From: a virus
Reading direction: 5' to 3' (one strand)
DNA length: 39,766 bases
IMG/VR virus record: IMGVR_UViG_3300045988_126628
The notes under the pieces are model-generated. The model was not told the origin of the DNA and ran no database searches. It saw nothing but the letters and a program-made list of their open reading frames with translations. This document shows positions 1 through 7,546 of this stretch, in pieces. The translations under genes were made by a program, and so were the position numbers. Position 1 is the first letter of the stretch, and the number at the start of each line of letters is the position of its first letter.

Positions 1-99
1 ATGATTTTTGTTGTGTCTTCCATGGTGTTCACCTCCTTGTTTTAACTGTTCTACTTTTTTATGTGGTATCTTTTAAAGTTACTCATGTGCAAAAAAAAT
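1..99. repeat. Terminal direct repeat, copy 1 (identical to 39668-39766)
   Basis: Base-by-base reading: atgatttttgttgtgtcttccatgg...catgtgcaaaaaaaat is present at both ends. The unit length is 39,667 bp. Confidence 0.9.
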
Positions 100-279
100 A
101 GTAATTGGGTCTTCTATTTTCAAATTATCAATCATAATTTGAATTTCATCGCTCCCAAATACTCCTATTTTCATTTTTTCATAAAATGTCTTAGGCGTTA
201 TTCCTATCATTTTTGCAATATCTGATTGGGAATATCCATTTTTCGCTATTATACCGCGTAACTCGTTTGTTTTAATCAA
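79..279 (-). CDS. Cro-like small HTH regulator (XRE/DUF739-like)
   Basis: 66 aa with an HTH segment SQSDIAKMIGITPKTFYEK. TTG start 5 nt after GGAGGTG. Divergent from the repressor gene across the operator region. Confidence 0.7.
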   Translation of the reverse strand: MIKTNELRGIIAKNGYSQSDIAKMIGITPKTFYEKMKIGVFGSDEIQIMIDNLKIEDPITIFFAHE

Positions 280-296
280 ATTTTCACCTCCGTATC

Positions 297-392
297 TTTT
301 TAAGTTACTTTAAGTATATCACGTTTTTGTAACTTGTCAAGATATTTTTGTTGCCTTTATAACATTTTTGTGCTATTATTAAGTTACTATTT
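297..392. promoter_or_regulatory. Divergent lysis/lysogeny switch with two extended -10 promoters and repeated operators
   Basis: Minus strand: TTGACA (340-335), 16 nt, TGaTATACT (-10 at 318-313). Plus strand: TTGCCT (351-356), 17 nt, TGcTATTAT (-10 at 374-379). The 10-mer TTAAGTTACT occurs at 300-309 and 379-388, with an inverted half-site GTAACTT at 329-335. Confidence 0.65.
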
Positions 393-410
393 AAAGGAGG
401 AACCACTAAT

Positions 411-869
411 ATGACAGTTGGCGAGCGTATAAAAGAAGCACGCATGCGACTTGGCTTGAGTCAAGTAGACTTTGCAGAAAAAATCAATGTCTCAAAGCAA
501 ACATTATATAAATACGAAAATAATATCATTACTAATATACCATCAGACAAAATAGAGGCTGCTGCCACCCTGAGCGGTGTATCGCCTGCCTACTTAATGG
601 GATGGAAGGATACTTCAATGGAAACCAATCCAACAGTTTCCCCCTTCGCTCAATGCCAGACCAAGGACGAAGAATCTCTAGTCCTCTCTTACAGAGAACT
701 AAACGATATAAATAAGAAAAAGAGCGTTACTTATACAAAAAACCTCTTATCTACACAGCGTATGGAAAACGAACTTCTTGCCGCTCATGAACGTACCGAT
801 ATAGAGATAACTCCAGAAGGGATTCAGAATGATTTAGATATTATGAATGATGAGGATTTGTGGGATTAA
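411..869 (+). CDS. XRE-family phage repressor (CI/ImmR-like) with no S24 peptidase domain
   Basis: 152 aa. N-terminal HTH: ERIKEARMRLGLSQVDFAEKINVSKQTLYKYEN. RBS AAAGGAGG. Sits at the repressor position of the switch. Confidence 0.85.
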   Translation: MTVGERIKEARMRLGLSQVDFAEKINVSKQTLYKYENNIITNIPSDKIEAAATLSGVSPAYLMGWKDTSMETNPTVSPFAQCQTKDEESLVLSYRELNDINKKKSVTYTKNLLSTQRMENELLAAHERTDIEITPEGIQNDLDIMNDEDLWD

Positions 870-889
870 CTTAGGAGGATTATTTTACT

Positions 890-1897
890 ATGAATGAAGA
901 TAAATTCTTTTTAACCTATAATCAGCAAATGAAAAAGCTTAGAAATGATAAATGTATTGATTGCAACGGCTCTTCCCATAAAAAAATATTAGTTCGTGCC
1001 GGTTATTTTAATATAGTAAATGGTTATAAAAATCCTTTTATAAGTGGTTGTGATTCTGCTGGTAAGCATTGTTATATATCTGGAACTTCAATCAATCAGC
1101 TCCAAGCGGTAAAAAAATTTGATGATTCTTTGCGTTCTTTTTTGTTGCGTTACATAACTCAAGTAGAGGAGGAAACCCGTTCATTAACAGGTTATAAATT
1201 CGATGAATGTAATGAACACGGAAATATCCCTTGGTATGATACCAATGCCTATTCCCCAAATAAAACTTTACAGCAGAAAATGACTGTAATTTCCAACGCA
1301 TATAGTGAACTTAGCAAAAGCAGACTAGATTATGTGAAATTTTACATGGATAACCATAAACAAATTCCTACATGGATTATGATTAAGGTAATTAACTTTT
1401 CAACATTTATCAATGTACTAAGTTATAGTAAAACAGATGTATCTCATGCTTTATGTAAGCTCTATGGTTTGGAAGATGACAATAGCCTTCCAAATGTAAA
1501 GCTATTAACGGGTTCTCTTCATTGGATGAGAAAAATTAGAAATTCCTGTGCTCATAATGAAAGAGTTTATTGTTTAACTAGAAAAAGTGAACATCGTGGA
1601 CGCTCTGGGCGAATATTAGAAAAATATTTTCGAATGCTTTCTTCTGGATATTCCAGAAACTTAGATCAAAAAATTTTTGATTTAATCATATATTTTAAAT
1701 ATTTTCTACCTAAAAATGAATATAAGCAATTTATAAATGAATTAAAATCTATGTTGAATGATTTGCAAACAAAAATTCACCCTCACGCATTTGAATATGT
1801 TCGTGGACAAATGGGAATACGAAATTTAGAAGACTTAGATAAGCTTCTTAATTTTCCTAAAGACGAAATAGAATATAACAAATTTGATGCTATATGA
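890..1897 (+). CDS. Abi_2 family (AbiD/AbiF-like) HEPN abortive-infection protein, paralog A
   Basis: 335 aa. Family hallmarks GYFNIVNGYKNPF and IPTWIMIKVINFSTF. HEPN R-x4-H motif IRNSCAH (nt 1538-1555). AGGAGG RBS 20 nt after the repressor stop. Confidence 0.8.
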   Translation: MNEDKFFLTYNQQMKKLRNDKCIDCNGSSHKKILVRAGYFNIVNGYKNPFISGCDSAGKHCYISGTSINQLQAVKKFDDSLRSFLLRYITQVEEETRSLTGYKFDECNEHGNIPWYDTNAYSPNKTLQQKMTVISNAYSELSKSRLDYVKFYMDNHKQIPTWIMIKVINFSTFINVLSYSKTDVSHALCKLYGLEDDNSLPNVKLLTGSLHWMRKIRNSCAHNERVYCLTRKSEHRGRSGRILEKYFRMLSSGYSRNLDQKIFDLIIYFKYFLPKNEYKQFINELKSMLNDLQTKIHPHAFEYVRGQMGIRNLEDLDKLLNFPKDEIEYNKFDAI

Positions 1898-1993
1898 TAA
1901 CGTATGACACTGTATGATAGTCTAAAAGACAAAATAATTAGTTTTTTGCAATAAATTATTTATTGAAATGATAAAAAAAATACCTTTTAAAAT

Positions 1994-2022
1994 TTGAAAT
2001 ATTTTTCTCTATATAGTAATAT
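1994..2022 (+). promoter_or_regulatory. Candidate promoter: TTGAAA, 17 nt, TAATAT
   Basis: -35 at 1994-1999 and -10 at 2017-2022. The background is AT-rich, so this could be fortuitous. Confidence 0.35.
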
Positions 2023-2028
2023 ACTTGT

Positions 2029-2106
2029 ACGGAGAGAACCATATTGATTATGGTTGAAAGGCACTCATGTAATAAATAATTATTGCATGGGTGTCTTTTA
2101 CTTTAT
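2029..2106 (+). ncRNA. Candidate ~75-nt two-hairpin RNA or leader ending in an intrinsic terminator
   Basis: Hairpin AACCATA/TATGGTT (2037-2055). A 14-bp stem at 2061-2094 (with G-U pairs) is followed by CTTTTACTTTAT. It may simply be the terminator of the repressor-abi operon. Confidence 0.3.
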
Positions 2107-2143
2107 GCAGTTATAATTGTTACTGAGAAAGGTGGTGTCTCAC

Positions 2144-2611
2144 TTGACATATGAACAACTTTTAGATGCTGCTGACCAAGAGGGTCTGGCAGTAAAAGAA
2201 CAACCGCTCTCTACTCATGATGGTCTGATTATTGGAAGCCGCATAGCAATTCGAAAGGATATTCTCACCCAGGCAAAGAAAGCCTGTGTCCTTGCCGAAG
2301 AACTTGGGCATCATTATACTAATGTAGGAAACGTGTTAGATCAAACAGATATAGCGAATATAAAACAAGAACGAAAAGCCCGGATGTGGGCTTACAACAA
2401 ACAGATTGGATTATCTGGCATATTATCCGCTTACCAATATGGCTGTAGGAATCTACACGAAATGGCAGAGCATCTGGATGTTACAGAAACATTTTTAAAG
2501 GATGCTTTGGATGCCTATCTCTTAAAATATGGGAAATGCACTGTAATAGATAATTACATAATATTTTTTGAACCACTGGGGGTTGTGGATATGAATTATG
2601 GGATTGAATAA
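2144..2611 (+). CDS. ImmA/IrrE-like (Peptidase_M78/DUF955) protein with a variant metal motif
   Basis: About 155 aa. The motif AEELGHHY sits where HExxH is expected. TTG 2144 lies 8 nt after AAAGGTGG; the ORF stays open back to 2117, so the start is uncertain. Confidence 0.65.
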   Translation: MTYEQLLDAADQEGLAVKEQPLSTHDGLIIGSRIAIRKDILTQAKKACVLAEELGHHYTNVGNVLDQTDIANIKQERKARMWAYNKQIGLSGILSAYQYGCRNLHEMAEHLDVTETFLKDALDAYLLKYGKCTVIDNYIIFFEPLGVVDMNYGIE

Positions 2612-2635
2612 TAAATAAAAAAATAAAATGAATAC

Positions 2636-2663
2636 TTGACAAGACTTTTGTATATGATATAAT
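2636..2663 (+). promoter_or_regulatory. Near-consensus sigma-A promoter: TTGACA, 16 nt, TGaTATAAT
   Basis: -35 at 2636-2641, TG at 2655-2656, -10 TATAAT at 2658-2663. Confidence 0.7.
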
Positions 2664-2669
2664 ATAAGC

Positions 2670-2740
2670 TAATTAGCGAATGACTGGTGTCCGGTCACAA
2701 TTGAGTCTTGAAATTTATTTCAAGGCTCTTTTTGTTTTTA
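2670..2740 (+). ncRNA. Candidate ~70-nt structured leader or small RNA directly upstream of Abi_2 paralog B
   Basis: Lies between the promoter and the RBS. Hairpin TGACTGG/CCGGTCA (2681-2697) is followed by a terminator hairpin. No ORF. Confidence 0.45.
2703..2740 (+). terminator. Intrinsic terminator placed 14 nt before the abi_2b start codon
   Basis: 11-bp stem GAGTCTTGAAA/TTTCAAGGCTC (2703-2713 and 2718-2728), 4-nt loop, then TTTTTGTTTTT. Confidence 0.7.
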
Positions 2741-2753
2741 TAGGAGATATACT

Positions 2754-3818
2754 ATGGCAAAAGATGAAATTCTTTACACGACTACTTCTAAACAATTAGA
2801 AAAATTAAAAAGTCAAAATTTAATTATAGAAAATGAGGAGCGAGCATATAAACGGCTACAATCTTATGGATATTTTAATATTATAAAAGGATATCGTAAT
2901 CCATATATTTTTAAAAATGAAAATCAGATAACTTATAGAGACGGCGTTTCTTTTGAACAAATATACTCACTTTATCTTCTTGATAAGAATCTTCGTAATG
3001 CAGTTTTTGCTTCTATGCTAGATTTAGAAGAACATATCAAAGCCGTGGTAGCTGACGTAATAGCTGAATCTTTCGGTGTACATCAAGAAGATTATATTCA
3101 ATTTCGTAATTTTCGAGACAAAAAGCGAAAATCCTCTCGATTTTCTTTAGCCAAAATTATAAATTGTATGAAAAATGCTCTGGATACTTCAAAAGATCCC
3201 GTTGCCCATTATCGAGATTTTCATGGAATTATTCCACCATGGGTTCTATTTAAGAATTTATATTTTAGTACAATTGTGAATCTTGTAAACCTTTTAAAAC
3301 CAGAAGAACAGCGTAAGGTAGCTTGTCGTTTATATGAACCCAATACTTCAAAAGGAAACATAGATAATTTAAGAAAAATTATGATGGATACATTATTTAT
3401 CTGTCTTGAATATCGGAATTTAGCAGCTCATGGCGGACAAGTTTATAACTATGTCTGTTCTTCTCGACTGAGAAGCAATAGTTTTTCTGGTGATAGTAAT
3501 TTGCTTGACGACTACCAGGGGTTTAGCCAACTATTATTTTTATTGCGAATTTTAAATTATCAGAACCCATTCAATACACTTAATAAAGTGTTGAACGAGC
3601 AGGTAAATCGGCATTGTCATTCATTCCCTCAAGATATTACTTATCTCGGTCAAATACTAAACCTTAATATTATTAGTGAAAATATTGTATGGGCTTCTTC
3701 CAACGGAACTATATACCATTCTTTTCCTCATTGTAGTGGGCTGCACGACCCTATTAAGTTAAATTTGGAAGAAGCAAAAAGCAAGGGGTATTCTCCTTGC
3801 AAAAAATGTTGTAAATAA
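2754..3818 (+). CDS. Abi_2 family (AbiD/AbiF-like) HEPN protein, paralog B, with a C-terminal Cys/His zinc-ribbon-like tail
   Basis: 354 aa. Family hallmarks GYFNIIKGYRNPY and IIPPWVLFKNLYFSTIVNL. HEPN motif YRNLAAH (nt 3414-3431). Tail: YHSFPHCSG...GYSPCKKCCK. Confidence 0.8.
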   Translation: MAKDEILYTTTSKQLEKLKSQNLIIENEERAYKRLQSYGYFNIIKGYRNPYIFKNENQITYRDGVSFEQIYSLYLLDKNLRNAVFASMLDLEEHIKAVVADVIAESFGVHQEDYIQFRNFRDKKRKSSRFSLAKIINCMKNALDTSKDPVAHYRDFHGIIPPWVLFKNLYFSTIVNLVNLLKPEEQRKVACRLYEPNTSKGNIDNLRKIMMDTLFICLEYRNLAAHGGQVYNYVCSSRLRSNSFSGDSNLLDDYQGFSQLLFLLRILNYQNPFNTLNKVLNEQVNRHCHSFPQDITYLGQILNLNIISENIVWASSNGTIYHSFPHCSGLHDPIKLNLEEAKSKGYSPCKKCCK

Positions 3819-3822
3819 CCAA

Positions 3823-3849
3823 AAGCCCAGTGCTACCAACACCGGGCTT
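3823..3849. terminator. Hairpin after abi_2b that is a better terminator on the minus strand
   Basis: AAGCCCAGTG/CACCGGGCTT, 10 bp with one mismatch. The minus-strand reading is followed by TTTTGGTTATTT; the plus-strand reading is followed by CCTCATAG. Confidence 0.45.
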
Positions 3850-3904
3850 CCTCATAGATTACTTGTCAACAGGGATGCTGACTGTATAACCTAACTTGAA
3901 CAAC

Positions 3905-3923
3905 TAGATTATACCACAGCATC
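3905..3923. repeat. Left copy of a perfect 19-bp inverted repeat bracketing int
   Basis: tagattataccacagcatc is the reverse complement of 5331-5349. The minus strand reads GATGCTGTGGTATAATCTA, which contains the extended -10 TGgTATAAT. Confidence 0.9.
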
Positions 3924-3977
3924 CGTAATTTTAACAGGGTGTATTTTTTATACCCATTTTTACGAAAGGATGATTAT

Positions 3978-5078
3978 ATGTGGACCGAGAAAACCAAAAA
4001 CGGGAAATATAAACACGTAGAACGCTACACAGACCCAGTGACGGGGAAGGAGAAGAAAGTTTCTATTACTACCGAAAAGAATACCGCTCAGGCCAGAAAA
4101 ACGGCACAGAGGGCACTTCTCGTTAAAATAGATAACCTTCTTGATGCGCGAACTATTTCTAATATCACACTTTCCGAACTCAGAGAAAAATGGCTAAACG
4201 ACAAAAGAAGAACCTGGAAAGAAAGTTCTTACGGTTCAGAAAAACGCAATAGTCGAAAAGTTGTAGAAATGCTTGGAGAAAATTGTATAGCAAATAATCT
4301 TACTGCTCGTTATGTCCGGGAACACATCACCTCTTTGGACGAAGACCTTTCTCTTGCTAACGGGAGAATCTCCGTGTTTAAAAGAATGATTACTTGGGGA
4401 TTTAAAAACGACTATATAAGTGATAAGTCCTATCTGGATAAATTAGAAAAGGTAGCCACCTCTGTTGAAACTAAGGAAGATATTGAAGAAAAGTATTTAG
4501 AATCTGATGAAGTCACAAAACTTATCAAAGGGATGAAAAAGGAACCTTGGATAACACTTACCCGCTTTCTTGTCCTTACTGGTCTTCGGATTGGGGAAGC
4601 ATTTTCTCTTACAGCTGCAGATATTGACTTGAAGAATCGGCATATCCACATAATCAGTAACTATGATTACATAAATAAACTTACTGATACTCCAAAAACG
4701 CCTTCCTCAAAAAGACGTGTGTATATTCAGGATGAGCTACTAGTTTTTGCAAGAGAACTAAAGAAAGAAGCTCTCGCGAATAAACTGATTTACGGAAGCG
4801 ACTTGATTTTTCAGCGAAAAGGCAAGCCCCTTGTCTATGAAAGTTACCACTACCAGTTAAGTACGGTAAGTCAAAAAACATTAGGGCGGAAAATCACGCC
4901 TCACACTCTCAGACACACTCATACTTCTCTTTTGGCAGAGCAGGGAGTAGATATTGAAACAATCTCCCGCCGCCTTGGACATGAAGATTCTCAGATTACA
5001 AGAAAGATATATCTTCATGTTACGAAAAAAATGCGAAAAAGAGATGAGATGCAGGTGCAAAGCATAAGAATCCTTTAA
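3978..5078 (+). CDS. int: Tyrosine site-specific integrase
   Basis: C-terminal catalytic pattern TGLRIGEA ... HTLRHTHTSLL ... LGHEDSQITRKIYLHV. ATG 3978 follows GAAAGGA; the ORF track extends back to 3939. Confidence 0.9.
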   Translation: MWTEKTKNGKYKHVERYTDPVTGKEKKVSITTEKNTAQARKTAQRALLVKIDNLLDARTISNITLSELREKWLNDKRRTWKESSYGSEKRNSRKVVEMLGENCIANNLTARYVREHITSLDEDLSLANGRISVFKRMITWGFKNDYISDKSYLDKLEKVATSVETKEDIEEKYLESDEVTKLIKGMKKEPWITLTRFLVLTGLRIGEAFSLTAADIDLKNRHIHIISNYDYINKLTDTPKTPSSKRRVYIQDELLVFARELKKEALANKLIYGSDLIFQRKGKPLVYESYHYQLSTVSQKTLGRKITPHTLRHTHTSLLAEQGVDIETISRRLGHEDSQITRKIYLHVTKKMRKRDEMQVQSIRIL

Positions 5079-5086
5079 AACTACGT

Positions 5087-5327
5087 TTGCCCCTTTTTGC
5101 CCCTTTTTCATATATTGCAGGTTTTATAAATCTGCTAATAACTACTGTTTATGCGGATTGCAGCCTGCAATATATGACATTTACAAAAAACACATAAATT
5201 TTATTGAGGTTTTTTAAAAAAGTTACATACGGCTTAAAAATGGCTTAAATACAGGCTTATTGTACTGTAATTTTATTCACACAAAATCAAGAGGTTTCAT
5301 ATTCTGCCCCTTTTTTGCCCCTCAAAA
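5087..5327. promoter_or_regulatory. Candidate attP region (repeat-rich, non-coding, next to int)
   Basis: GCCCCTTTTT doublets at 5089-5110 and 5305-5322. 13-bp inverted repeat CATATATTGCAGG/CCTGCAATATATG (5109-5121 and 5164-5176). GGCTTA repeated three times at 5231, 5242 and 5254 (11-12 bp phasing). Confidence 0.4.
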
Positions 5328-5330
5328 GCA

Positions 5331-5349
5331 GATGCTGTGGTATAATCTA
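5331..5349. repeat. Right copy of the 19-bp inverted repeat, carrying an extended -10 promoter facing the lipoprotein gene
   Basis: GATGCTGTGGTATAATCTA on the + strand, with TGgTATAAT at 5338-5346. Confidence 0.9.
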
Positions 5350-5470
5350 TAGATAAGTATTCCTATTTCATTTTAAAACATAATACCTATGTACCAGATT
5401 TGTGTTTTGTTGTATAATTATATTCATAATTATTTAAAAACTTATCAATCAAAAGGAGAAGGAGAAACTT

Positions 5471-6496
5471 ATGAAAAAAATTTTAAGTCTACTAATTATT
5501 GCAATGTTGATATTGAATTTGTATGCATGTAGCAATACTGATTCTACAAATAATTCTACCACCAGAGATACGAGCACTGCTAACGCTGCTACCCCTTACA
5601 CATACGAAGGCGTTACGTTCGAAATTCCGACAGTGTGGGGTGAGCCTGAAGAAAATGATGATTCGGATAATACATATTATTTTTATCCAGAGGGGCAAAA
5701 TGATAAAAAGCACGATACTGTCCCGGCAATGCTCATGATTGATATAACAGATGCTGATTATCTTACAGGTATGTCACAAGAAGAAATAGAATCAAATTTT
5801 GATGAATTTAACTCCGGAATATCCGATACCATAACTATAACAAGTAATAAAATTGTAAGTTCCTTTAAATATCCGTGTGAATATGTCACTGGAACTAATA
5901 CTACAAGTGGCGAGTCCAGAAATATTGCCATGTATGTGTTTTTTTATAACAAAAAACTGTATAATGTTATGATGAGTACACGTGATGATAACAAGCACGA
6001 CTACTCTTCCAATCTAACAAATATCATAAATTCGCTAGAATATTCAGAAGATAGTGATAATAGCTACGATGAGTTAACGACAGAAGATGATTATAAGGAA
6101 GTTACTACAGAGGTCACCGAAGCTACAACAGCAGCAAAGAAAAAAACGAAAAAGGAATCTTACAAGAAAGAAAACTGGAATCCTCAGATCACTTATAGTC
6201 AGTTAGCCCGTACTCCAGATGACTATGTAGGAAATAAAATCACATTTGAGGGCAAAGTAATACAGGTATCAGAAAGCTCTTACAGTGACACCGTGTATCT
6301 GCGTGTTGCTACTAGCGATGATTATAATAAAGTAATGTTAATTGAATACGATTCATCCATACTAAGTTCTCGTATCCTTGAAGATGATGAGATTCGTTTT
6401 TACGGAACATCAACTGGTCTGTATACCTATGAATCAACATGGGGAAAAAGTGTCACTATTCCTGCTGCTACTGTTGAACATATCACTATTCAGTAA
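5471..6496 (+). CDS. Prophage-encoded lipoprotein (moron)
   Basis: 341 aa. Signal peptide plus lipobox-like LNLYAC|S. Ser/Thr/Asn-rich linker, a K-rich spacer and a C-terminal beta-rich domain. RBS AAAGGAGAAGGAG. Confidence 0.75.
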   Translation: MKKILSLLIIAMLILNLYACSNTDSTNNSTTRDTSTANAATPYTYEGVTFEIPTVWGEPEENDDSDNTYYFYPEGQNDKKHDTVPAMLMIDITDADYLTGMSQEEIESNFDEFNSGISDTITITSNKIVSSFKYPCEYVTGTNTTSGESRNIAMYVFFYNKKLYNVMMSTRDDNKHDYSSNLTNIINSLEYSEDSDNSYDELTTEDDYKEVTTEVTEATTAAKKKTKKESYKKENWNPQITYSQLARTPDDYVGNKITFEGKVIQVSESSYSDTVYLRVATSDDYNKVMLIEYDSSILSSRILEDDEIRFYGTSTGLYTYESTWGKSVTIPAATVEHITIQ

Positions 6497-6513
6497 ATAA
6501 CATCCATGCGCAT

Positions 6514-6541
6514 TTAAGAGCAGCTTAGTAGCTGCTCTTAA
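6514..6541. terminator. Bidirectional terminator between convergent genes
   Basis: 11-bp perfect stem TTAAGAGCAGC/GCTGCTCTTAA with a 6-nt loop, AT-rich on both flanks. Confidence 0.7.
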
Positions 6542-6544
6542 TTA

Positions 6545-7546
6545 TTAAGACTGTCCGATTTTTGATTTTAAAACTGTGATTTCCAAAATATTTTCTGTGT
6601 CCAAATCTGCGTTCGTGTGAATCTCGACGGGCGTTTTTGATGTGTCTAATACATAATCATAGTCCTCGACCAGCATAACACCGTTGACGTTTACAAATAA
6701 CACATCACTAGCTGCATGAGTATAACCAGACATATCGAGCGGGAATACTCTGTTCTTTTGTCCCGTTTCCACGACTTTGTGATATTTTTTCACATAAGTG
6801 TTTACATTTAATTGGTCCGTAAGAGCGGAAAACCACGCGTCAAACGCCGCTTTTTGACTTGTCTCCCAGTTGCTGAACCCCGTTTCTTGCTGTTGCTGCC
6901 AGTCGCTGAACTCTGTTTCTTGTTCATTCTGCCAACCACTAAATCCTGTTTCCTGTTCATTCTGCCAGCTCTGCATCTGTTTGTAAAATTCCTCATACGC
7001 TGTTTGCCACTGCAAAAATAATTTACTCGTGTCCACTTGCTGCACGATACTAGTTACCCAGCCACATACATTATTATCTGGGCGGGCATCCTCAATATTT
7101 GCCTGCGTAATAGCGGTCACGCCTCTGCCTACATAGACGTATGCTAAACACAATTCTTTTATCGTTTCTGAATTTGTGATAACTGGTTTTACAGGTGTCG
7201 TTGCATTTTCGCCGTCTTTTGTCGTGATTACAATAGTACGCGCCGATAAATCTAACCGAATTATAATCGCCGTATAGCGGTTTAATGTGACGTGTGCGGC
7301 GTTGATTATGAGCGGATAAGCGGCGGTGTTTTTAATCCATTTTGAGTCAATAATAGCCCTACCCGCTCCTACTTGCACCTGCATGCCAGTGCCGGCTAAA
7401 ACCTGCATTGCATCATCCACACTCTCATATACCCCGTCACTCACGAGCCCCTCGAAATATGTACTCATTTGGTCTGCGTTATACGTGCGGTCGTATGTAC
7501 CGTCTGATTGTTTTATTGCGTTAAAAAATCCATATGTAATAGCCAT
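6545..7546 (-). CDS. Putative tail fibre / receptor-binding protein (last gene of the tail module)
   Basis: ATG 7546 lies 5 nt after GGAGGTG. N-terminus AITYGFFNA...DRTYNADQMSTYFEGLVSDGV resembles Firmicute phage fibre/upper-baseplate proteins. Contains Trp-periodic 11-aa repeats. Confidence 0.55.
   Translation of the reverse strand: MAITYGFFNAIKQSDGTYDRTYNADQMSTYFEGLVSDGVYESVDDAMQVLAGTGMQVQVGAGRAIIDSKWIKNTAAYPLIINAAHVTLNRYTAIIIRLDLSARTIVITTKDGENATTPVKPVITNSETIKELCLAYVYVGRGVTAITQANIEDARPDNNVCGWVTSIVQQVDTSKLFLQWQTAYEEFYKQMQSWQNEQETGFSGWQNEQETEFSDWQQQQETGFSNWETSQKAAFDAWFSALTDQLNVNTYVKKYHKVVETGQKNRVFPLDMSGYTHAASDVLFVNVNGVMLVEDYDYVLDTSKTPVEIHTNADLDTENILEITVLKSKIGQS
6833..6967 (-). repeat. In-frame 33-nt (11-aa) tandem repeats inside the fibre gene
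   Basis: TGG (Trp) codons at 6833, 6866, 6899, 6932 and 6965, exactly 33 nt apart. Peptide: WQNEQETGFSG / WQNEQETEFSD / WQQQQETGFSN / WETSQKAAFDA. Confidence 0.85.

Follow-up and report, generated by a model that had tools for sequence, protein, structure and literature searches.

Two Abi_2 genes in the lysogeny module of a gut phage are each accompanied by a conserved small structured RNA

The IMG/VR virus record IMGVR_UViG_3300045988_126628 is a stretch of 39,766 nucleotides (nt), which as a whole is called here the window. Near one of its ends there are five open reading frames (ORFs) on the plus strand that code for an XRE-family repressor, a protein of the abortive infection family Abi_2 (paralog A), an M78/ImmA-like protein, a second Abi_2 protein (paralog B) and an integrase (Table 1). 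A preliminary description of this DNA, made from the sequence alone, had given the same order and strand. Since minus-strand phage genes fill positions 6545-39700 and a small cro-like gene is divergent from the repressor, the region can be considered the lysogeny module of a temperate phage, whose host group are the gut Lachnospiraceae. The preliminary description saw in the two Abi_2 genes a two-tier prophage defence or exclusion module, possibly wired to the ImmA-like protease. It missed two conserved small structured RNAs, one for each Abi_2 gene, the first located upstream of paralog B and the second downstream of paralog A.

Table 1. Features of the lysogeny module, with coordinates in the window and the evidence for each.
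Feature	Position	Strand	Evidence
Cro-like small helix-turn-helix protein, lytic side of the switch	79..279	-	HTH_8/HTH_3 matches; divergent from repressor gene
Switch region, divergent promoter-like sites	313..379	.	Consensus scan, pattern matches only
XRE-family repressor candidate	411..869	+	HTH_3 6.5e-13, residues 7-62 of 152; phrog_8 1e-22
Abi_2 paralog A	890..1897	+	PF07751 7e-37, 127.9 bits; PADLOC AbiD 1e-37; phrog_2158 2e-64
A-type RNA promoter-like site TTGAAA-17-TAATAT	1994..2022	+	Consensus scan
A-type RNA, ~70 nt	2029..2099	+	Covariance model R2, 80.8 bits, only strong match in window
M78/ImmA-like protein, 155 amino acids	2144..2611	+	phrog_87 'metallo-protease' 1e-34
B-unit promoter TTGACA-16-TATAAT with TG	2636..2663	+	12/12 consensus positions, sigma-70
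B-type RNA/leader, ~70 nt	2665..2736	+	Covariance model R1, 82.6 bits, one match in window
Abi_2 paralog B	2754..3818	+	PF07751 1e-30, 107.9 bits; PADLOC AbiD 1e-37; phrog_2158 1e-47
Conserved hairpin between paralog B and integrase gene, contains GTGCTACCAACAC at 3830-3842	3821..3851	.	Hairpin scan
Tyrosine integrase	3978..5078	+	Phage_integrase 4.5e-26; phrog_1 3e-63

The assignment of both proteins to Abi_2 was borne out by the searches. Their scores against PF07751 exceed the Pfam cut-off of 25.6 bits, PADLOC identifies both as AbiD, and the PHROG family that contains them (phrog_2158) is annotated as 'abortive infection resistance protein', while NCBIfam added nothing for these two proteins. 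The HEPN motif R-x4-H is found exactly at the coordinates where it had been described (RNSCAH at 1538-1555 in paralog A and RNLAAH at 3414-3431 in paralog B), and its catalytic arginine and histidine are invariant, both among 29 B-type relatives (R221/H226) and in an alignment of A and B proteins together (R217/H222). The two paralogs share only 26% identity over 310 amino acids (aa), indicating that they diverged long ago and that, as had been claimed, this is not a recent duplication. At E<=1e-10 the subfamily of paralog A comprises 749 proteins and that of paralog B 489, the latter about 350 aa long, from gut Lachnospiraceae and with a conserved Cys/His tail. We also compared the AlphaFold2 models of both proteins (mean confidence, pLDDT, of 78 for A and 89 for B) with known structures by Foldseek. 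The sole significant match in the PDB was 8VZ6_A, with an E value of 1e-6 and a template modelling (TM) score of 0.71 for paralog A, and 7e-9 and 0.73 for paralog B. By this comparison both paralogs have the AbiF fold, that of PbAbiF bound to its non-coding RNA (ncRNA).

The tail is present in paralog B only, as had been noticed before. It is a C-terminal Cys/His module (about 3669-3815) in which H322, C327, C349 and C352 are invariant in the 29 relatives, and AlphaFold2 models it confidently as a small beta-beta-beta-alpha module. Its match to Ada_Zn_binding (PF02805) is below the cut-off (16-18 bits, cut-off 23) and spans only the PCKxC end.

Between the stop codon of the ImmA-like gene and the start of paralog B there are a promoter of perfect consensus and a terminator-like hairpin (2703-2728). 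The RNA or leader that they delimit is composed, in this order, of the 5' palindrome GCTAATTAGC, the motif GAAUG, a hairpin (2682-2696), an extended terminator hairpin (2697-2735) and a U-run, after which come the ribosome-binding site and the ATG of paralog B at 2754. As a sequence layout, this succession of promoter, RNA, terminator and ATG is that of an upstream RNA with a terminator before a toxin gene. To survey B-type genes, 71 genomic loci were fetched. About 130 nt 5' of these genes are conserved nearly base for base, with encoded proteins that are ~50% identical. The -35 hexamer of the promoter is invariant across 33 loci and the -10 nearly so, and the median identity to the window is 82% for the promoter and 79% for the RNA versus 63% for the coding sequence.

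A MAFFT alignment that had not been fitted to any structure served to test the two helices of the B-type RNA, the 6-bp hairpin and the extended terminator stem. In this alignment 93.1% of the cells were paired, versus 33-53% in slid controls, and 13 pairs had changed on both sides, values that were reached by none of 500 shuffles. The fold of the single sequence matches the structure supported by covariation (z -4.8). The covariance model built from it, R1, gives one match per B-type locus, always immediately 5' of the gene and on the same strand, in 39 loci (36 plus L110, L111 and L150; relatives are referred to by such locus numbers throughout). It gave no match in 31 A-type viral loci, about 30 distant Abi_2 loci and 77 A-only metagenome loci. 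Several shorter B-type genes (303-323 aa, in L047, L061, L065, L066 and L069) seem to be devoid of the tail and have kept the B-type RNA; a frameshift or an assembly error may explain their length, but if taken at face value they indicate that the tail is not needed for the association with the RNA. The 5' palindrome (2664-2677) deserves a separate comment. Its palindromy is preserved from locus to locus with a spacing that varies, as in CACTAATTAGTG and CTAATTGCAATTAG, and because the loop length varies, which makes a MAFFT alignment impossible, it is absent from the covariance model. It begins 0-5 nt past the -10 box and therefore probably overlaps the transcription start.

A second RNA of the B type, serving paralog A, was also considered and had to be discarded, the only match being a terminator-like one of 7.3 bits at 2023-2100. 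The RNA of paralog A is of a different kind and lies on the other side of the gene. In every locus with a 3' flank, a promoter-like site and the A-type RNA are found 60-160 nt past the stop codon of the A-type gene. The site preserves a -35/-10 pattern (TTGyAA or TTGTCA, then (TG)nTAATAT), and in the RNA a 5' segment ACAGAGAGA is followed by a hairpin of 7 bp that has the loop UUGAU, by the linker GAAA and by a terminator of 13 bp. In the window the 5' segment reads ACGGAGAGA, the hairpin with the UUGAU loop extends over 2037-2055, and the GAAA linker is followed by the terminator hairpin (2060-2095) and a U-run. Covariation is strong here too: 98.6% of the cells were paired versus 34-48% in slid controls, 12 pairs had changed on both sides and none of 500 shuffles reached the observed values. 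The predicted fold (-32.2 kcal/mol, z -9.0) agrees with this structure. The identity to the window is 79% for the RNA versus 71% for the coding sequence. The unit is preserved in loci whose proteins are as little as 62% identical; L031, with a protein that is 45% identical, has an altered form of it.

Nearly all copies of the A-type RNA (96 of 97) follow an A-type gene, and the linkage of each RNA to its own Abi_2 subfamily is strictly specific. The gene that comes next on the 3' side varies: some loci have an ImmA-like gene there and many a recombinase gene, and in 24 of 75 it is convergent. This variability rules out that the A-type RNA is the leader of the next gene, and indicates that it travels with paralog A. 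On the 5' side, the flanks of A-type genes are unrelated between contexts and an ORF on the same strand ends no more than 80 nt away in 42 of 72 contexts, and the toxin gene has no conserved promoter of its own. In the window the repressor gene ends 20 nt before paralog A, in a gap that contains the ribosome-binding site AGGAGG (873-878), as the preliminary description had stated. The coupling of paralog A to the repressor gene that it proposed receives support from the relatives, given that the gap is 3-20 nt in all those that share this gene order. Paralog A probably rides on the repressor transcript, and its expression would then be expected in lysogens. Among loci without an A-type gene, covariance model R2 found a match only in L001. 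This orphan A-type RNA (4251-4348, 76.8 bits) has a promoter-like site TTGAAT-17-TATACT and is located between the XRE and the ImmA-like gene, and the homology of L001 to the window starts at the -10 box of the A-type RNA.

Neither RNA was recognised by the Rfam searches. The abiF motif (RF03085) was not found at E<=1 over positions 1-6600, nor at E<=10 over 2600-2770 and 1890-2150, whereas in phage phiC2, used as positive control, both abiF motifs 5' of AbiF were recovered with 37.6 and 19.5 bits. We thus consider the two RNAs as additional RNA classes. They match no other family of Rfam 15 either: over 1-6600 and both intergenic regions there were only matches at chance level (mir-1271, SAM, Bacteroid-trp and others), and a scan of 11 distant Abi_2 loci at the Rfam gathering thresholds gave only tRNAs and one T-box. 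What is new here, therefore, are two RNA classes undescribed so far, one of them with a reversed gene order.

Abi_2 proteins of the AbiF type are at present regarded as type III-like toxins that are neutralised by an ncRNA encoded in cis (PMC12373285, PMC13064643). We think it likely that the locus contains two autonomous cassettes of this AbiF/AbiFr-like (type III) kind, each made of a HEPN RNase toxin and its cognate small RNA. While the data show the identities of the genes, the AbiF fold of both proteins, the two RNAs as conserved structured elements and their linkage to the genes, the transcription of the RNAs, their role (most likely that of antitoxins, by analogy with the characterised systems), the trigger and the phenotype are inferred. 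The lysogeny module of XRE, M78-like and integrase genes would have acquired two independent AbiF-type cassettes. In cassette B (2636-3818) the constitutive consensus promoter would produce an RNA of ~70 nt, most transcripts ending at the intrinsic terminator, while read-through would provide the mRNA of paralog B. The RNA would in this way act in cis as an attenuator of toxin synthesis, and RCd22 and AbiFr suggest by analogy that it would also bind and block the toxin in trans. Cassette A (890-2099) would have the order reversed, with the toxin translated from the repressor transcript and the RNA made from its own downstream promoter. The A and B RNAs are unrelated in sequence, so no cross-neutralisation is to be expected, and both could then coexist in one prophage. 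A phage that infects the lysogen and disturbs host transcription or RNA turnover would lower the ratio of RNA to toxin, and the freed RNases could lead to growth arrest or to aborted infection. Alternatively, the pairs may serve to stabilise the prophage. The role in prophage defence or exclusion that had been suggested for the two genes remains plausible, and the integrated ImmA-wired module in which it was framed is not supported.

The closest parallel to cassette B is RCd22-AbiF(Cd) of a Clostridioides difficile prophage, in which promoter, RNA, terminator and gene succeed each other and the RNA neutralises the toxin (PMC12373285); RCd22 acts also in cis, through premature termination (PMC12373285). 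The toxin, found in phi027/phiC2, is likewise a prophage-borne Abi_2 HEPN protein with the R-x4-H motif, and the layout is shared with cassette B in its details: a SigA-type promoter, an RNA of ~70-130 nt, a rho-independent terminator, a ribosome-binding site and the gene, with no promoter in between. The differences are also considerable. RCd22 carries two RF03085 abiF motifs, unlike the RNAs of the window; AbiF(Cd) is encoded in the lysis module and paralogs A and B in the lysogeny module; the proteins are 21-25% identical; and the extra Cys/His module of paralog B and the downstream RNA of cassette A set the window apart from the AbiF(Cd) system. The structural reference is PbAbiF, whose active site is blocked by AbiFr according to the account of PDB 8VZ6 (Zilberzwige-Tal et al. 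2025) given in PMC12737573. Both window proteins resemble it in the HEPN fold and in the catalytic R/H motif (TM 0.71-0.73 over ~300 columns), but the sequence identity is ~19%, the RNAs are different, and the binding of RNA is here only predicted.

The lactococcal AbiD/F systems show stronger conservation in their upstream non-coding DNA than in the genes themselves (68-80% versus 46-65%; PMC13064643), a pattern that we also see for cassette B (79-82% in the flanking non-coding DNA versus 63% in the gene). AbiD, AbiD1 and AbiF, along with the AbiD-like proteins, belong to the same Abi_2 family, but they occur as single copies on plasmids and have their RNA upstream, and neither a variant with a downstream RNA nor a Cys/His tail is described for them (PMC13064643). 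With ToxIN/AbiQ, the classical type III systems, the window shares a protein RNase toxin, an RNA encoded in cis, the terminator in between (in cassette B) and, by analogy, a possible role in abortive infection. ToxI, in contrast, is a tandem-repeat array processed by ToxN, whereas both covariance models find one RNA copy per locus, and the toxins of the window have the HEPN/AbiF fold and not that of ToxN.

As to the genomic setting, the succession repressor, Abi_2, integrase has precedents among annotated prophages of streptococci. In IPP38, Spn1 and Javan119 these genes are found on the same strand at the attachment end, and paralog B occupies the equivalent slot in the window. They have a CI-like repressor, though, and a single Abi_2 gene, and their proteins are 22-27% identical to paralog A. 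An RNA partner is not annotated in these prophages, whose loci we have not examined for one. The ImmR-ImmA-Int arrangement of ICEBs1 and phi105 is similar to that of the window in having an XRE protein without S24 domain, an M78-like protein and an integrase encoded on one strand with a divergent cro-like gene. The window differs from it by the two cassettes and two terminators located between these genes and by a short M78-like protein with EELGH.

It is only since 2025 that AbiF-type toxins and their ncRNAs have been recognised as systems with an RNA antitoxin and as the probable ancestors of Cas13, and so far RF03085 is the only curated RNA motif associated with AbiF. The present locus suggests two more classes of such RNAs, and each of them goes with one large Abi_2 subfamily from gut Firmicutes. 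The presence of both cassettes in one prophage provides a natural test for the orthogonality of RNA-toxin pairs, and for annotators it is a reason to look both upstream and downstream of Abi_2 genes for an RNA partner.

Several observations weigh against two autonomous toxin-RNA pairs. The transcription starts, the RNA ends and the binding of each RNA to its toxin are all predictions. As RF03085 does not match, the antitoxin role is based on analogy and linkage and not on homology of the RNAs, and we have found no precedent described in the literature for an RNA located 3' of an AbiF-type toxin gene. The orphan in L001, directly 5' of the ImmA-like gene, indicates that the A-type RNA can exist without the toxin. 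From its position, the palindrome GCTAATTAGC may be an operator at the DNA level rather than an RNA hairpin. Finally, A and B have been kept together in the diverged L150, so that selection for having both is to some extent conceivable.

A bolder version of the proposal would have a reversed, type III-like cassette A of a kind not described before, its toxin slaved to the repressor operon and its RNA made from an independent promoter, with the terminator of this RNA gating the ImmA-like gene, orphan copies acting as phage-borne decoy antitoxins that enable a related phage to superinfect lysogens, and the two RNAs forming orthogonal AbiFr-like classes. With cassette A so slaved, the toxin to antitoxin ratio would report the state of the lysogeny switch. 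Taken as a whole we regard this as unlikely. Should it be true for the slaved cassette A together with the RNA of B, two AbiFr-like classes would join a lineage that is thought to be ancestral to the guide RNAs of Cas13.

The two elements might also work purely in cis, the B RNA as an attenuator or leader (perhaps responsive to a ligand or a protein) and the A RNA as an insulating terminator plus promoter, with no antitoxin involved. Both elements do end in strong intrinsic terminators, RCd22 likewise terminates prematurely in cis, and the palindrome of the B leader overlaps the site where transcription should begin, a place that would suit an operator. Nevertheless, both RNAs preserve more than this would explain. 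Besides its terminator, the A RNA has a second conserved hairpin and an invariant unpaired GAG, UUGAU loop and GAAA, and the B RNA an invariant GAAUG and a 6-bp hairpin. A plain terminator would not keep a conserved promoter 3' of a gene across 96 loci. Moreover, the models give both proteins the fold of an RNA-bound toxin, and the characterised members of the family use their RNA in trans. These arguments make a role exclusively in cis rather improbable.

The orphan of L001 could be a deletion remnant, a gate or leader on the ImmA-like gene, or a decoy antitoxin. Pseudo-ToxI decoys encoded by phages are known for ToxIN. One could then imagine that the A-type RNA serves mainly for lysogeny control, by gating the ImmA-like gene, or for counter-defence as a decoy when it is an orphan. 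In L001 the RNA and its promoter-like site are indeed found between XRE and ImmA in the absence of the A gene, and in at least 13 loci the ImmA-like gene starts 19-38 nt past the RNA terminator. Such a main role is nonetheless very unlikely. The next gene is a recombinase, some other gene or a convergent one in most loci, all but one of the 97 copies of the RNA follow an A-type gene, and the single exception is possibly a deletion remnant or a product of recombination.

The distribution of the cassettes among relatives bears on the wiring idea of the preliminary description. Megablast of positions 1-6600 against 50,697 phage records gave no match. The arrangement is not unique to this genome: L110 and L111, phages nearly identical but for a different XRE, have all five genes in this order, and the diverged L150 keeps it through paralog B, with A 69%, ImmA 57% and B 49% identical. 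For B units an M78 neighbour is the minority, as among the 5' neighbours at ~33 genomic loci we counted 15 helix-turn-helix proteins, 9 M78 and 2 DUF6782 proteins, 2 S24 repressors and an Ltp lipoprotein. On the 3' side of the same units a large serine recombinase was found 11 times and a tyrosine integrase 8 times. Among the closest relatives either cassette has come or gone without the other. L001 has XRE, ImmA, B and integrase but no A; L109 and L112 have XRE, A, ImmA and integrase but no B; and in L107 another insert occupies the slot of B. The order XRE, A, ImmA is found in L022, L133, L151, L152 and L160, while A comes after ImmA in L008, L010, L012, L014 and L116-L130, and elsewhere A has no detectable XRE or ImmA. 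The A cassette was found in none of 35 genomic loci seeded with B. This pattern fits autonomous cassettes that occupy the usual slots for accessory genes in lysogeny modules and not a circuit centred on ImmA, and the adjacency to ImmA-like and XRE genes would reflect these slots rather than a sensor-effector pair.

The least probable alternative, and a highly improbable one, is thus a single integrated two-tier module in which the ImmA-like protease acts as a sensor of damage or infection and governs one Abi_2 protein or both: the interleaved order kept in L110, L111 and the diverged L150, the recurrence of XRE, A and ImmA in five other loci and the ImmA-like gene directly past the A-type RNA terminator in those loci and in L001 would agree with it, but it is disfavoured by the relatives with only one cassette or another insert, by the 0 of 35, by the presence of M78 beside only 9-11 of the ~33 B units, others being accompanied by S24 repressors, by the many phages that place A after ImmA or without it, and by the lack of a canonical HExxH in the ImmA-like protein. 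To this must be added that each Abi_2 gene has an RNA, a promoter and a terminator of its own and that, as far as can be read from the DNA, the consensus promoter and attenuator insulate paralog B transcriptionally from the ImmA-like gene.

The ImmA label itself needs to be taken with some reserve. The protein matches phrog_87 (1e-34), but its Pfam M78 score of 21.4 bits is just under the cut-off of 22 bits, and its zinc motif is EELGH (about 2294-2311) in place of HExxH. A motif EExGH (EELGH, EEIGH or EERGH) is present in all 30 distinct ImmA-like homologues from the fetched loci. The first zinc-ligand histidine is hence replaced by glutamate, which makes catalytic activity uncertain. Searches of the PDB sequences and of NCBIfam with this protein returned no match. 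The ORF opens at 2117, and a better start is probably the TTG at 2144, behind AAGGTGG.

The repressor candidate was rightly described as an XRE protein without S24 domain, HTH_3 at its N terminus being the sole domain detected by the Pfam search. Between it and the cro-like gene, of which copies 83-86% identical are found 5' of XRE in L010, L014 and L150, two sites were recognised as pattern matches only: TTGACA-16-TATACT on the minus strand (340..313) and TTGCCT-17-TATTAT with TG on the plus strand (351-379). In the metagenome contigs L106-L112, paralog A is 99% identical to that of the window, and where they occur the ImmA-like protein, paralog B and the integrase have 81-100% identity. The XRE proteins, in contrast, reach no more than 54-61% in L106-L111, which in the rest of the module are 88-100% identical; in L112 the value is 85% over a short segment. 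This indicates that variants of an otherwise nearly identical module have exchanged their repressor gene. These contigs look like hetero-immune variants that arose by exchange of the repressor and switch region 5' of paralog A.

At the other end of the module, the integrase ORF opens with a GTG at 3939 and the likely start is the ATG at 3978. On the minus strand, the hairpin that precedes it (3821-3851) has the form of an intrinsic terminator. Of the 186 fetched loci 33 contain its loop motif GTGYTACCARCAC, more than expected by chance, and always between the last cassette of the lysogeny module and the recombinase gene, also in the distant Lachnospira loci L081 and L082.

As a whole, the window resembles a near-complete temperate phage genome of ~40 kb, in which tRNA genes are absent. 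Its G+C content is 29-34% over positions 1-4000, in the lysogeny module, and 32-40% from there to 6000, the structural and early genes of the minus strand having about 35-50%, mostly 38-45%. Downstream of the integrase, on the plus strand and thus opposite to the structural genes, there is a predicted lipoprotein (5471-6496) with a signal peptide and a lipobox ending in LYAC (phrog_5319, 2.8e-25), probably a further accessory gene near the attachment site.

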